DNA of 64,000 nucleotides from Squalus acanthias. Taxonomy: Eukaryota. The notes below the pieces were generated by a model, which saw only the letters and a list, made by a program, of their open reading frames with translations, did not search any database and was not told the DNA's origin. Location: contig CM059431.1 in assembly GCA_030390025.1 (NCBI GenBank), forward strand, positions 155,994,001-156,058,000, read 5' to 3'. A program made the position numbers and the translations under genes. This document shows positions 3,001 to 16,789 of this stretch, one piece after another. The first letter of the stretch is position 1. Every line of letters begins with the position of its first letter.

Positions 3001-4291
3001 TCAGAGTGTCAGAGTACCCTGGACAACACAGACTGCCGGAGTACCCTATCAACACAGAGTGGCAGAGTAACCTGGACTACATAGAGTGTCAGAGTGTCTT
3101 GGACTACACAGAGTGTCAGGGTACCCTGGACTGCACAGAGTGTCAGCGTACCATGGACTACACAGAGTGTCAGACTACCCGGGACGACACAGAGTGTCAG
3201 AGTACCCTGGACTACACAGAGTCTCAGAGTACCCTGGACTACACAGAGCGTCAGAGTACCCTGGACTACACAGAGTGTCAGTGTGCCTTGGACTACACAG
3301 AGTGTCAGAGTACCCTGGACTACACAGAGTGCCAGAGAGCCCTGGACTACACAGAGTGTCAGTGTATCCTGGACTATACAGAGTATCAGAGTACCCTGGA
3401 CTACACAGTTGTCAGAGTGCCTTGGACTACACAGAGTGTCAGAGTACCGTGGACTACACAGAGTGTCAGAGTACCCTGGACTACACAGAGTGTCCGAGTA
3501 CCGTGGGCCAAACAGAGTGTCAGAGTAACTTGCACAACACGGAGTGCCAGAGTACCCTGGACTACACAGAGTGCCAGAGTACCGTTTACAACAAAGAGTG
3601 TCAGAGTTACTTGGACTACGCAGAGTGTCAGAGTACCTTGGATTACGCAGAGTGTCAGACAACCGTGGGCTACACAGAGTGAAGGAGTACACTGGGCTAC
3701 ACAGATTGTCAGAGTACCCTGGACTACACAGAGTGTCAGAGTACCGTGGGCTACACAGATTATCAGAGTACCCTGGACGAAACAGAGTGTTAGATTACCT
3801 TGGACTACACAGAGTGTCAGAGTACCGTGAACTACACAGAGTGTCTGAGTACCCTGGACTACACAAAGTGACAGAGTACACTGGGCGACGCAGAGTGTCA
3901 GAGTACCCTGGACTACACACAGTGTCAGAATACCTTGGACTACGCAGAGTGTCAGAGAACCGTGGGCTACACAGAGTGACAGAGTACCGTGGACTACACA
4001 AAGTGTCAGAGTACCTTGGACTACACATAGTGTCAGATTATTCTGGATTACACAGAGTGTCAGGGTACCCTGGTCTACACAGAGTTTCAGAGTACCTTGG
4101 ACTAAACAGAGTGACAGGGTACACTGGGCTACACAGATTGTAAGAGTACCCTGGACTACACAGACTGTCAGAGTACCCTGGACTACAAAGGGTCTCAGAG
4201 TACCCTGGATTACACAGACAGTCAGAGTACCCTGGTCTGCACAGAGTGTCAGAGCACATGGGACTACTCAGAGTGTCAGAGTACCCTGGAC

Positions 4292-7200
4292 TACACAGAG
4301 TGTTAGAGTGCCTTGGACTACACAGAGTGTCAGAGTACCGTGGACTACACAGAGTGTCAGAGTGCCTTGGACTACACAGAGTTTCAGAGTACTGTAAACT
4401 AAACAGAGTGTCAGAGTACCCTTGACTACACAGAGTGTCAGAGTACCGTGGGATACACAGAGTATCAGAGTACCTGGGACTACACAGAGTGTTAGAGTAC
4501 CCTGGACTACACAGAATGTCAGAGTACCCTGGACTACACAGAGTGTCAGAGTACCGTGGGATACACAGAGTATCAGAGTACCTTGGACTGCACAGAGTGT
4601 CAGAGCACTTGGGACTACACAGAGTTTCAGTGTACCCTGGACTACACAGAGTGTCAGAGTAACCTCTACTACACAGAGTGTCAGATTACATTGGACTACA
4701 CATAGTGTCAGTGTACCTGGACTACACAGAGTGTCAGAGTAACTTAGGCTACACAGAGTCTCAGACTACCGTGGACTACACAGAGTGTTAGAGTACCCTT
4801 TTCTGCATAGAGTGCCAGAGTACTTTGGACTACACAGAGTGCCAGAGTACCGTGGACAACACAGAGTGTCAGAGTACCTTGGACTACACAGAGTGTCAGA
4901 GTACCCTGGACTACACAGATTATCAGAGTACCCTGGACTAAACAGAGTGTTAGATTACCTTGGACTGCACAGAGTGTCAGAGTACCGTGGACTACACAGA
5001 GTGTCTGAGTACCCTGGACTACACAAAGTGTCAGAGTACCTTGGACTACGCAGAGTGTCAGAGAACCGTGGGCTACACAGAGTGACAGAGTACCGTGGAC
5101 TACACAAAGTGTCAGAGTACCTTGGACTACACATAGTGTCAGATTATTCTGGATTACACAGAGTGTCAGGGTAACCTGGTCTACACAGAGTGTCAGAGTA
5201 CCTTGGACTAAACAGAGTGACAGGGTACACTGGGCTACACTGATTGTAAGAGTACCCTGGACTACACAGACTGTCAGAGTACCCTGGACTACAAAGAGTG
5301 TCAGAGTACCCTGGATTACACAGACAGTCAGAGTACCCTGGTCTGCACAGAGTGTCAGAGCACATGGAACTACTCAGAGTGTCAGGGTACATTGGACTAC
5401 ACATAGTGTCAGTGTACTCTGGACTACACACAGTGTCAGAGTACCTTAGGCTACACAGAGTCTCAGAGTACCGTGGACTACACAGAGTGTCAGAGTACCT
5501 TGGACTACACAGAGTGTCAGAGTACCTTGGACTACACAGAGTGTCAGAGTACCCTGGACTACACAGAGTGTCAGAGTACCTTGGACTACGCTGAGTGTCA
5601 GAGAACCGTGGCCTACACAGAGTGTCAGAGTACCGTGGGCTTACACAGAGTGTCAGAGTACCTTGGACTATACGGAGTGTCAGAGTACCTTGGACTACAC
5701 AGAGTGTCAGACTACCGTTTACTACAAAGAGTGTCAGAGGACCTTGGACTGCACAGAGTATCACAGTACCGTGGGCTAAACAGAGTGACAGAGTACACTG
5801 GGCTACACAGAGTGTTAGAGTACCCTGGACTACACAGAGTGTCAGAGTACCTTGGACTCCGCAGAGTGTCAGAGAACCGTGGGCTACACAGAGTGACAGT
5901 GTACACTGGGCTACACAGAGTGTCAGAGTATCCTGGTCTACACAGAGTGTCAGATTAACGTGGGCTACACAGAGTATCAGAGTACCCTGGACTAAACAGA
6001 GTGTTAGATTACCTTGGACTACACAGAGTTTCAGAGTACCGTGGACTACACAGAGTGTCTGAGTACCCTGGACTACACAAAGTGTCAGAGTACCTTGGAC
6101 TACATATAGTGTCAGATTATTCTGGATTACACAGAGTGTCAGGGTACCTTGGACTACACAGAGTGACAGGGTACACTGGGCTACACAGATTGTAAGAGTA
6201 CCCTGGACTACACAGATTGTCAGAGTACCCTGGACTACAAAGAGTGTCAGAGTACCCTGGATTAAACAGACAGTCAGAGTACCCTGGTCTGCACAGAGTG
6301 TCAGAGCACATGGGACGACTCAGAGTGTCAGAGTACCCTGGAATACACAGAGTGTTAGAGTGCCTTGGACTACACAGAGTGTCAGAGTACCGTGGACTAC
6401 ACAGAGTGTCAGAGTGCCTTGGACTACACAGAGTTTCAGAGTACTGTAAACTAAACAGAGTGTCAGAGTACCCTGGACTACACAGAGTGTCAGAGTACCG
6501 TGGGATACACAGAGTATCAGAGTACCTGGGACTACACAGAGTGTTAGAGTACCCTGGACTACACAGAATGTCAGAGTACCCTGGACTACACAGAGTGTCA
6601 GAGTACCGTGGGATACACAGAGTATCAGAGTACCTTGGACTGCACAGAGTGTCAGAGCACTTGGGACTACACAGAGTTTCAGTGTACCCTGGACTACACA
6701 GAGTGTCAGAGTAACCTCTACTACACAGAGTGTCAGATTACATTGGACTACACATAGTGTCAGTGTACCTGGACTACACAGAGTGTCAGAGTAACTTAGG
6801 CTACACAGAGTCTCAGACTACCGTGGACTACACAGAGTGTTAGAGTACCCTTTTCTGCATAGAGTGCCAGAGTACTTTGGACTACACAGAGTGCCAGAGT
6901 ACCGTGGACAACACAGAGTGTCAGAGTACCTTGGACTACACAGAGTGTCAGAGTACCCTGGACTACACAGATTATCAGAGTACCCTGGACTAAACAGAGT
7001 GTTAGATTACCTTGGACTGCACAGAGTGTCAGAGTACCGTGGACTACACAGAGTGTCTGAGTACCCTGGACTACACAAAGTGTCAGAGTACCTTGGACTA
7101 CGCAGAGTGTCAGAGAACCGTGGGCTACACAGAGTGACAGAGTACCGTGGACTACACAAAGTGTCAGAGTACCTTGGACTACACATAGTGTCAGATTATT

Positions 7201-8499
7201 CTGGATTACACAGAGTGTCAGGGTAACCTGGTCTACACAGAGTGTCAGAGTACCTTGGACTAAACAGAGTGACAGGGTACACTGGGCTACACTGATTGTA
7301 AGAGTACCCTGGACTACACAGACTGTCAGAGTACCCTGGACTACAAAGAGTGTCAGAGTACCCTGGATTACACAGACAGTCAGAGTACCCTGGTCTGCAC
7401 AGAGTGTCAGAGCACATGGAACTACTCAGAGTGTCAGGGTACATTGGACTACACATAGTGTCAGTGTACTCTGGACTACACACAGTGTCAGAGTACCTTA
7501 GGCTACACAGAGTCTCAGAGTACCGTGGACTACACAGAGTGTCAGAGTACCTTGGACTACACAGAGTGTCAGAGTACCTTGGACTACACAGAGTGTCAGA
7601 GTACCCTGGACTACACAGAGTGTCAGAGTACCTTGGACTACGCTGAGTGTCAGAGAACCGTGGCCTACACAGAGTGTCAGAGTACCGTGGGCTTACACAG
7701 AGTGTCAGAGTACCTTGGACTATACGGAGTGTCAGAGTACCTTGGACTACACAGAGTGTCAGACTACCGTTTACTACAAAGAGTGTCAGAGGACCTTGGA
7801 CTGCACAGAGTATCACAGTACCGTGGGCTAAACAGAGTGACAGAGTACACTGGGCTACACAGAGTGTTAGAGTACCCTGGACTACACAGAGTGTCAGAGT
7901 ACCTTGGACTCCGCAGAGTGTCAGAGAACCGTGGGCTACACAGAGTGACAGTGTACACTGGGCTACACAGAGTGTCAGAGTATCCTGGTCTACACAGAGT
8001 GTCAGATTAACGTGGGCTACACAGAGTATCAGAGTACCCTGGACTAAACAGAGTGTTAGATTACCTTGGACTACACAGAGTTTCAGAGTACCGTGGACTA
8101 CACAGAGTGTCTGAGTACCCTGGACTACACAAAGTGTCAGAGTACCTTGGACTACATATAGTGTCAGATTATTCTGGATTACACAGAGTGTCAGGGTACC
8201 TTGGACTACACAGAGTGACAGGGTACACTGGGCTACACAGATTGTAAGAGTACCCTGGACTACACAGATTGTCAGAGTACCCTGGACTACAAAGAGTGTC
8301 AGAGTACCCTGGATTAAACAGACAGTCAGAGTACCCTGGTCTGCACAGAGTGTCAGAGCACATGGGACGACTCAGAGTGTCAGAGTACCCTGGAATACAC
8401 AGAGTGTTAGAGTGCCTTGGACTACACAGAGTGTCAGAGTACCGTGGACTACACAGAGTGTCAGAGTGCCTTGGACTACACAGAGTTTCAGAGTACTGT
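4292..8499 (+). repeat. Near-identical tandem higher-order duplication, period 2052 bp (76 monomers)
   Basis: Identical ORF pairs at offset 2052 (4785/6837, 5144/7196, 5298/7350, 5473/7525, 5595/7647, 6001/8053). The rare variant ACTGTAAACT occurs at 4391 and 6443. Boundaries approximate. Confidence 0.93.
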
Positions 8500-9269
8500 G
8501 GACTAAACAGAGTGTCAGAGTACCCTGGACTACACAGAGTGCCAGAGTACCGTGGGATACACAGCGTATCAGAGTACCTTGGACTACACAGAGTGTCAGA
8601 GTACCCTGGACTACACAGAGTGTCAGAGTACCCTGGACAACACAGAGTGTCAGAGTACCGTGGGATACACAGAGTATCAGAGTACCTTGGACTGCACAGA
8701 GTGTCAGAGCACATGGGACTACACAGAGTTTCAGTGTACCCTGGACTACACAGAGTGTCAGAGTAACCTCTACTACACAGAGTGTCAGATTACATTGGAC
8801 TACACATAGTGTCAGTGTACCTGGAATACACACAGTGTCAGAGTAATTTAGGCAACACAGAGTCTCAGACTACCGTGGACTACACAGAGTGTTAGAGTAC
8901 CCTTTTCTGCATAGAGTGTCAGAGTACCTTGGACTACACAGAGTGCCAAAGTACCGTGGACAACACAGAGTGTCAGAGTGTCTTGGACTACAGTGAGTGT
9001 CAGGGTACCCTGGACTGCACAGAGTGTCAGCGTACCATTGACTACACAGAGTGTCAGACTACCCTGGACTACACAAAGTGTCAGAGTACTTTGGACTACA
9101 CATAGTGTCAGAGAACCGTGACTAAACAGAGTTTCAGAGTACCTTGGACTACGCAGAGTGTCAGAGAACCGTGGGCTACACAGAGTGTCAGAGTACACTG
9201 GACTACACAGAGTGTCAGAGTACCCTGGACTACACAGAGTGTCAGAGTACCCTGGACTACACAGAGTGT

Positions 9270-12871: not shown

Positions 12872-12882
12872 CTACACAGAGT
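12872..12882 (+). repeat. Target-site duplication, left copy (CTACACAGAGT)
   Basis: Identical to 13224-13234. The offset to the sister block rises from 1079 bp before the insert (TTATTAC at 11601 vs 12680) to 1431 bp after it (TATCCTAG at 11811 vs 13242). The difference is +352 = 341 insert + 11 duplicated bases. Confidence 0.9.
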
Positions 12883-12919
12883 TGAGAGGTCGCACAACAC
12901 CAGGTTATAGTCCAACAGT

Positions 12920-12925
12920 TTTATT
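12920..12925 (-). promoter_or_regulatory. Putative polyadenylation signal AATAAA with downstream GT-rich tract
   Basis: Plus-strand TTTATT is AATAAA on the minus strand, 5 nt 3' of the hammerhead. It is followed ~17 nt later by TGGTGTTGTGCG. Confidence 0.55.
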
Positions 12926-12930
12926 TGAAA

Positions 12931-12968
12931 TCACAAGCTTTCGGAACTATCGCTCCTTCCTCAGGTGA
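12931..12968 (-). ncRNA. Minimal type I hammerhead ribozyme motif (PLE-type)
   Basis: Minus strand 12968->12931 reads UCAC CUGAGGA A GGAGC GAUA GUUCC GAAA GC UU GUGA. The CUGANGA and GAAA core boxes are present. Stem I is UCAC/GUGA, stem II is GGAGC/GUUCC (one G-U) with a GAUA loop, and stem III is reduced to the palindrome AAGCUU. Predicted cleavage is after CUU, between 12935 and 12934. Confidence 0.8.
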
Positions 12969-12997
12969 AGTAAATTGGATACAGAATCGTCAGAGCA

Positions 12998-13003
12998 TAT
13001 ATA
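12998..13003 (-). promoter_or_regulatory. TATA-like box upstream of the hammerhead
   Basis: TATATA lies ~30 nt 5' (minus strand) of the start of hammerhead stem I, the usual TATA-to-start spacing. The motif is short and the region AT-rich, so it could be chance. Confidence 0.35.
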
Positions 13004-13172
13004 GATGGAAAAAAAAGCATGTGTACTTTACAATTGCAGACCAATAAATTAAATCATCCTGACTATCTGCCGAGGTGTGATAAAGTTAATTAAGTCAGCC
13101 AGGAAGGTACCACATCAAAAGACATAGCAAGATACAACTGAGACAATGAGGTGAAGTCGCAGGGGTTCTAAC

Positions 13173-13223
13173 ACCTCTCAATTTTGTCCACCCCAGTCCA
13201 ACACCGGCATCTCCGCATCATGA
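13173..13223 (+). mobile_element. Putative PLE 3' end and tail in opposite orientation to the rest of the insert
   Basis: Begins with ACCTCTCA, the reverse complement of the first 8 nt of the insert (TGAGAGGT, 12883-12890). It then continues ATTTTGTCCACCCCAGTCCAACACCGGCATCTCCGCATCATGA up to the TSD. Confidence 0.6.
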
Positions 13224-13234
13224 CTACACAGAGT
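13224..13234 (+). repeat. Target-site duplication, right copy (CTACACAGAGT)
   Basis: Identical to 12872-12882. The empty site in sister blocks has this 11-mer only once between GTGTACACTGGG and GTCAGAGTATCCTAGTC. Confidence 0.9.
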
Positions 13235-16200: not shown

Positions 16201-16789
16201 TAGAGTATCTTGCACTGCACAGAGTGTCAGAGTACCGTGGGCTGCAAAGAGTGTCAGAGTACCTAGGACTGCACAGAGTGTCAGCGTACCATGGGCTGCA
16301 CAGAGTGACAGAATACCCTGGACTAAACAGAGTGTCAGAGTACCGTGGGCTACACAGAGTGTCAGAGTACCTTGGACTACACGGAGTGTCTGAGTACCTT
16401 GGACTACACAGAGTGTCAGACTACCGTTTACTACAAAGAGTGTCAGAGGACCTTGGACTACACAGAGTGTCACAGTACCGTGGGCTAAACAGAGTGACAG
16501 AGTACACTGGGCTACACAGAGTGTAAGAGTACCCTGGACTACACAGAGTGTCAGAGTACTTTGGACTCCGCAGAGTGTCAGAGAACCGTGGGCTACACAG
16601 AGTGACAGTGTACACTGGGCTACACAGAGTGTCAGAGTATCCTAGTCTACACAGAGTGTCAGATTACCGTGGGCTACACAGAGTATCAGAGTACCCTGGA
16701 CTAAACACAGTGTTAGAGTAACTTGGACTACACAGAGTGTCAGAGTACCGTGGGCTGCAAAGAGTGCCAGAGTACCTAGGACTGCTAGA

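Follow-up and report, generated by a model that had tools for sequence, protein, structure and literature searches.

A minimal hammerhead motif in a Squalus acanthias satellite array lies within a truncated head-to-head insertion of a probable Penelope-like element

The window analyzed here, a 64,000-nucleotide stretch of Squalus acanthias DNA, is occupied from position 4 to 64000 by a 27-bp satellite of 2,373 units, whose unit contains no hammerhead. A single unique stretch (12875-13231) interrupts the array. It corresponds to an insertion of 341 bp (12883-13223) bounded by an 11-bp target-site duplication, with plus-strand copies at 12872-12882 on the left and 13224-13234 on the right, and this insertion is the sole non-satellite DNA of the window. 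The satellite runs on for at least 10 kb beyond each end, giving at least 84 kb that contain nothing but satellite and the 341-bp insertion. Equivalents of the empty target site are present elsewhere in the array at 16631, 28382, 23395, and 11804, with 5-8 mismatches per 300 nt. The satellite itself is organized in higher-order blocks, and the 300-nt contexts at these four positions are nearly identical.

The insertion is composed of two arms. Arm 1 (12883-13173, minus strand) is a 291-nt, 5'-truncated pLTR that ends at a "short" 3' terminus and matches the pLTRs of elements at loci L099, L100, and L101 at 290 of 290 positions; its start lies 130 nt past the stop codon of the open reading frame (ORF) at L100. 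Arm 2 (13173-13223, plus strand) is an inverted 51-nt "tail" that ends at a "long" 3' terminus, the ORF start codon ATG (13220-13222), and matches, at 51 of 51 positions, the stretch of L099-L102 that leads up to and includes the ATG. The two arms are joined with 1 nt of microhomology. A TATA-like box at 12996-13003 of the minus strand, about 38 nt before the ribozyme core, is a candidate pLTR promoter and, if used, would set the transcription start just before the ribozyme. Among 130 distinct upstream variants, 56 have a TATA-like word 36-40 nt before C3, and the remaining 74 include truncated junctions.

Arm 1 carries a minimal type I hammerhead on the minus strand (12931-12968), identified by sequence, by covariation, and by its match to the published consensus for minimal hammerhead ribozymes (min-HHRs) of Penelope-like elements (PLEs). 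Read from 12968 to 12931, the strand is UCAC-CUGAGGA-A-GGAGC-GAUA-GUUCC-GAAA-GC-UU-GUGA, in exact agreement with the stems and core boxes described in the initial annotation. Stem I has 4 bp (12968-12965 with 12934-12931). The core CUGAGGA (12964-12958) and an extra A (12957) precede stem II, which has 5 bp, one of them G·U, and a tetraloop (12956-12952 with 12947-12943). GAAA (12942-12939) and GCUU (12938-12935) follow, with stem III reduced to the palindrome AAGCUU. The elements CUGANGA...GAAA...NUH are therefore present in type I order. The predicted scissile bond (12934-12935) follows U17 of a CUU triplet, with U17 at 12935 and G1.1 at 12934, which is where the cut had been placed before. 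The motif had also been described as lying inside the satellite array; the array does surround it, but the motif belongs to a transposon insertion that interrupts the repeats.

A minimal-hammerhead descriptor that requires two 4-bp stems together with both core boxes has one match in the whole window, on the minus strand, and none in 20,000 shuffled inserts. The other scan that had been suggested came back empty: Rfam covariance models yield no hammerhead match at E<=5 for the whole window or E<=10 for the insert, presumably because these models expect a stem III. No second hammerhead was found in the window or in the 10 kb on either side (84 kb in total). On its own, the 38-mer forms stems I and II with a folding energy of -10.5 kcal/mol (z -1.92), and 8 of 200 shuffles fold equally well. 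In longer context stem II is kept (P 0.88-0.98), but the pairing probability of stem I is low (P 0.03-0.41). The lack of an Rfam match and the modest folding z-score are what a chance match to a short descriptor might look like, but the failure of every shuffle, the fixed place of the motif in a PLE pLTR, and the covariation described below rule out this explanation, whose probability is negligible.

The parent element was sought by searching the 3.71-Gb genome with the insert, with 40 of 91 candidates scored. The matches divide the insert into two segments on opposite strands, positions 1-291 and positions 291-341. Longer copies extend upstream to an ORF encoding a reverse transcriptase (RT) and an endonuclease (EN), and open 892-aa ORFs are present at L097, L099-L102, and L104, among 11 longer stretches. 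At L099, L100, and L101, hammerheads identical to that of the window flank the ORF at a spacing of 3,138 nt; in full-length copies the AUG follows the predicted cut at a distance of 91 nt. The 892-aa protein matches Pfam RVT_1 (E=1.4e-8) and has the motifs GLKF, DKG, and YIDD and a CX4CxxC linker. This linker zinc finger, CHGKLCKTC at residue 753, lies between RT and EN and fits CX2-5CxxC. A GIY-YIG region, VYLIRCRKEC..WYIG with two Cys between its motifs, was read by eye, and a sister copy gives a weak Pfam match to this domain (E=3.5e-4, below the curated cut-off). The closest named relatives of the protein are shark proteins with 81-94% identity, and a PDB sequence search with the ORF returned no match.

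The linker and motifs point to Neptune or Nematis and not Poseidon (PMC8557442). Neptune is the likely clade, as a motif-based assignment in which the linker is a feature shared with Nematis. The layout of endonuclease-bearing (EN+) PLEs is present in full: partial tandems, an inverted truncated copy, a tail, and a target-site duplication. Contigs assembled from public runs display the same two 3' termini in other organisms. A large head-to-head array at L097-L098 (G000:C1:223718000-223733000) contains five hammerheads; its minus strand holds a single full unit and its plus strand about two, and of its outer ends one is long and the other short.

Conservation was examined in a haplotype set of 226 parsed arms out of 367. 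All 24 recurrent haplotypes belong to the window's family and vary at N7, U4, position 17, and the length of loop II. The core is otherwise constant in all 24, an invariance that is partly ascertained because most loci were found with core-fixing patterns. In a sample found with the downstream anchor only, 22 of the 27 arms that reach the core are canonical and 5 are U4C. The stems remain mostly paired through C-G to U-A changes at pairs 2.3-1.3 and 10.5-11.5, the only pairs with two-sided changes within this family, and through G·U pairs; 5 of the 24 recurrent haplotypes have a broken pair. The G10.1-C11.1 pair is G-C in 24/24.

A second family (L139-L165) has stem I AGUU/AACU, stem II GGGUC/GACCC, the palindrome AACGUU, and its own downstream block, and differs from the first in all four stem I pairs, in two stem II pairs, and in the palindrome (AGCU to ACGU). 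A pattern for this family with the stems left free gives 3,016 matches versus 1,041 controls, and one of its loci (L151) has a piece of PLE ORF upstream (32% identity). The palindromic 15.2-16.2 pair is G-C in the window's family and C-G in the second, with no stable stem III. Across 28 hand-picked sequences, two-sided changes occur in 9 of 10 stem pairs, and 99.3% of cells are paired, compared with 12-43% in slid controls; the events are few, most of the changes fall between the two families, and the shuffle test of covariation is inflated by relatedness. Covariation of stems I and II across genomic copies, which the initial annotation had proposed as a check, is thus present, mostly between families.

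Two presumed irregularities of the motif turn out to be ordinary. The extra A between positions 9 and 10.1 had been taken as a departure from the textbook core; it is present in 111 of 112 haplotypes and in the published min-HHR consensus, CUGANGAH ... GAAAN-palindrome-NUH (PMC4209133), and because the consensus includes this extra nucleotide after CUGANGA, it is better described as a signature of PLE hammerheads. Similarly, U17 is the norm of the family (47,769 copies versus 3,020 non-U, of which 96 of the first 100 listed have C) and occurs in 20 of 44 readable rows of the published supplement, as counted by eye (PMC4209133). Cores with a variant U4 give 3,759 matches in several loop-II subfamilies, and all 100 of those listed have C. 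Judged from positions only, 76 U4C copies lie directly before an ORF start. Examples of U4C include L274 and L282-L293, and two U4C copies stand in tandem on contig C1153, 3,108 nt apart.

The identity to intact elements, the two-arm layout with its long and short ends, the target-site duplication, and the conserved fold are all observed. The motif is read here as the pLTR hammerhead of a young PLE, likely Neptune, retained in a 341-bp truncated head-to-head insertion in which the lone copy is likely a near-inactive passenger, with a probability of roughly 0.9. The earlier identification of a Penelope-like pLTR minimal type I hammerhead is borne out, as both pLTRs of intact elements carry the identical motif, the stems covary, and the published consensus matches.

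The motif class, the host element, and the insertion layout are already in print. The metazoan PLE min-HHRs of Cervera and De la Peña (2014; PMC4209133) are likewise type I with CUGANGAH and G10.1-C11.1, have a stem III of no more than the palindromic 15.2-16.2 pair, have U-rich and AU-rich flanks, and occur mainly as single truncated copies or close opposite-strand pairs. A turtle row has G-C-U-U after GAAA, and a lamprey row has the UCAC/GUGA stem I, both as in the window, whereas the 5-bp stem II of the window is shorter than that of many rows. The shark family has at least 47,769 copies, compared with 4,000-9,000 in coelacanth and Xenopus (PMC4209133). "Shark" and "Callorhinchus" are absent from one supplement file of that paper. 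No publication on this shark PLE family was found in the literature searched, which yielded one review that uses "shark" solely for the shape of the motif; the supplements of Li et al. 2026 (bioRxiv), a study that includes one chondrichthyan, may list it.

Neptune EN+ PLEs (Craig et al. 2021; PMC8557442) share with the shark family a single ORF with RT followed by a C-terminal GIY-YIG, DKG, CX2-5CxxC, partial tandems, an inverted 5'-truncated copy, and a 30-40-bp tail. The shark family differs in its targets, which are AT-rich and often other repeats, not clear microsatellites. The Poseidon element PAc of Anolis carolinensis (Frangieh et al. 2024; PMC11167929) is similar in having its hammerhead upstream of two tail-defining RT starts, in using both strands, and in its AT-rich targets. 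However, the PAc ORF begins inside the hammerhead and its RT starts lie 111-118 nt into the ORF, whereas the shark hammerhead is wholly in the 5' UTR, where the predicted cut precedes the AUG by 91 nt, and the AUG itself marks the long end. Furthermore, Poseidon is without the linker zinc finger that the shark family has.

The window copy is ordinary in frequency. The pattern core-gap-GAAAGCTTGTG gives 47,769 genome matches versus 1 in the control, and 81,163 arms genome-wide carry the downstream anchor, so that 0.8-1.4 copies are expected per 64 kb, and one copy in the window equals the genome average. The notion of a hidden single copy consequently does not hold, with about 0.8 copies expected per 64 kb across the genome.

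The initial annotation had suggested that the motif, if active, could cleave transcripts as they enter the satellite, so that satellite RNA would start at a defined 5'-OH. Such co-option of the window copy could draw on an intact motif on the minus strand that faces into the satellite, on the TATA-like box kept upstream, and on the tens of thousands of genomic copies as possible trans partners. However, only a single repeat block contains the insertion, equivalent sites in other parts of the array being empty, and the window copy is identical to the youngest mobile subfamily, so that its intactness reflects youth; its density, as noted, is that of the genome at large. Moreover, there is no cis partner within 84 kb, and stem I is poorly populated in context. 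Co-option is therefore very improbable, and the trimming of satellite transcripts is unsupported, a partner hammerhead being absent from the window and from the 10 kb on either side.

A type I hammerhead within tandem DNA also recalls non-LTR retrozymes and the newt satellite hammerhead, which are alike in their weak stem III and dimer requirement, and animal retrozymes have been proposed to derive from PLE pLTRs (bioRxiv 10.64898/2026.07.22.740005). In those systems each tandem unit has its hammerhead, whereas the window has one PLE stump in an unrelated 27-bp satellite. The published definition demands a hammerhead in at least 2 consecutive units (bioRxiv 10.64898/2026.07.22.740005); the motif here is single, the satellite unit has none, and the insert has the inverted-tail layout and duplication of a PLE. 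Membership in the retrozyme or newt type is extremely unlikely. As a PLE stump, the window copy is of little import, one among tens of thousands, in a family of modest value.

CUU is presumably a slow cleavage triplet. GUC and GUA are reported as the fastest triplets in PMC3138052, in which no CUU-specific rate was found. Single min-HHRs showed no cleavage in published tests and dimers showed low cleavage (PMC4209133), in agreement with the earlier proposal that this motif would need a second copy. The lone window copy likely cuts RNA poorly or not at all, and ribozyme action in the full element would probably be of the dimer type. Stem III could form by AGCU-AGCU pairing between two copies, which would lie either on one tandem transcript at a spacing of 3,138 nt or on two RNAs held together by the element's protein. 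The dimer would then slowly cleave after U17, at the site 91 nt ahead of the AUG. Cutting would trim tandem precursors to unit length, and copying would likely be independent of it. Computed dimers favor a non-catalytic form, with a 6-bp AAGCUU duplex at -20.3 kcal/mol versus -17.7 kcal/mol for the 4-bp form.

The arms themselves suggest that cutting is not obligatory. The core is copied through in 27 of 33 anchor-only arms and, intact, in arm 1 of the window, so the template RNAs were uncut or re-ligated, which argues against a required cut. Truncation points were scored in the first 100 truncated arms, 77 of which remained once 19 palindrome junctions and 4 indels had been excluded. No spike of 5' truncations is found at the cut site in this sample (4/77, p=0.47), palindrome junctions being indistinguishable from cut-end joins. 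Truncations at positions 15-17 number 16/77 (p=0.054), and many of them are microhomology fold-backs. Mini-insertions joined exactly through AAGCTT or GAGCTC were seen at L168, L172, L193, L205, L208, L211, L219, L226, and L249; such palindrome-joined mini-insertions make up 19-20 of 100 rows, obtained with a filter that favors them. Two single cases, at L203 and L222, could reflect a template jump across cut RNA: an insertion of 3 nt placed precisely at the predicted cut in one copy, and a deletion ending there in the other.

The hammerhead fold might instead be kept for a non-catalytic job, such as protein binding or presentation of RT start sites, or be a tolerated hitch-hiker that hardly cleaves in vivo. 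This explanation concerns function only and is compatible with PLE identity. The thousands of U4-variant cores, including the 76 directly before an ORF start, are in its favor, as are the lack of excess truncation at the cut site and the frequent reading through the core. Moreover, Anolis PLE hammerhead mutants still insert, and normally so, and no RNA-seq ends were reported at the site (PMC11167929). On the other hand, the core outside U4 and N7 is constant in the 24 recurrent haplotypes while loop II length varies, although part of this constancy is ascertained, and in 24/24 position 17 carries one of two cleavable bases, U or C. A viroid U4C variant is reported to be sufficiently active in vivo (PMC3088659), and the Anolis hammerhead does cleave, if only with protein (PMC11167929). 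This explanation is somewhat unlikely.

The role of PLE hammerheads is still described as unclear (PMC8557442). The U4C subfamilies, with their weakened core, at thousands of copies, the uncut templates, and the position of the ribozyme just behind a conserved TATA-like box and 91 nt before the AUG prompt a more speculative proposal, in which the shark family would offer a natural test of the need for cutting by PLE hammerheads. The hammerhead would act as an off-switch, triggered by a dimer or by protein: when the RNA or protein of the element is abundant, it would take the capped 5' end off the element's mRNA, and it would not be a step required for copying. As it stands, this proposal is distinctly unlikely. 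The genome supplies intact elements that are nearly identical to one another and vary naturally at U4, N7, and position 17.

The family is also informative about insertion. Among 103 inverted pairs, 68 have one long and one short end and 47 have an exact 10-15-bp duplication, the misses including older subfamilies that are poorly scored by a single reference. Young long-plus-short pairs have an exact 10-16-bp duplication in 25 of 29 cases, with a mode of 13 and AT-rich sequence. At the 25 young loci, the duplication overlaps the element by a mean of 2.1 nt per end, versus about 0.4 by chance, and 2-nt overlaps at both priming sites suggest microhomology-assisted priming. The layout of inverted copy, tail, and duplication has been described for PLEs (PMC3846280; PMC8557442), and the Anolis PLE nicks and extends both strands, with two RT starts bounding the tail (PMC11167929). 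Priming by PAc is stated to be non-homologous to the target (PMC11167929), whereas the shark family has short overlaps.

A two-strand, two-site priming route would account for the 341-bp insertion. The GIY-YIG domain would nick both DNA strands about 11-13 bp apart. With element RNA as template and about 2 nt of microhomology as an aid, cDNA synthesis would be primed by one 3'-OH at the short site and by the other at the AUG, roughly 40 nt farther downstream. The two cDNAs would halt after 291 and 51 nt and then be joined. Twin priming on a single RNA, in which the long cDNA would stall on reaching the short site, was also considered; tail-only arms are rare (246 matches, of which about 24% pass the filter), and this route was rejected as the rule.

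The in vitro work on the Anolis PLE used a Poseidon element (PMC11167929). With many clean junctions that combine 13-bp duplications, two priming sites, and about 2 nt of microhomology, the shark family is handy material for tests of cleavage and of two-primer insertion in a Neptune-type element. Independent insertions at the same position in other repeats were observed in three sets (L024, L044, L100, and L102; L018, L019, L028, L029, L201, L278, and L286; L002, L039, and L173), and this recurrence suggests preferred target sequences. Several of the host repeats are presumably CR1-type LINE coding sequence, which they resemble.
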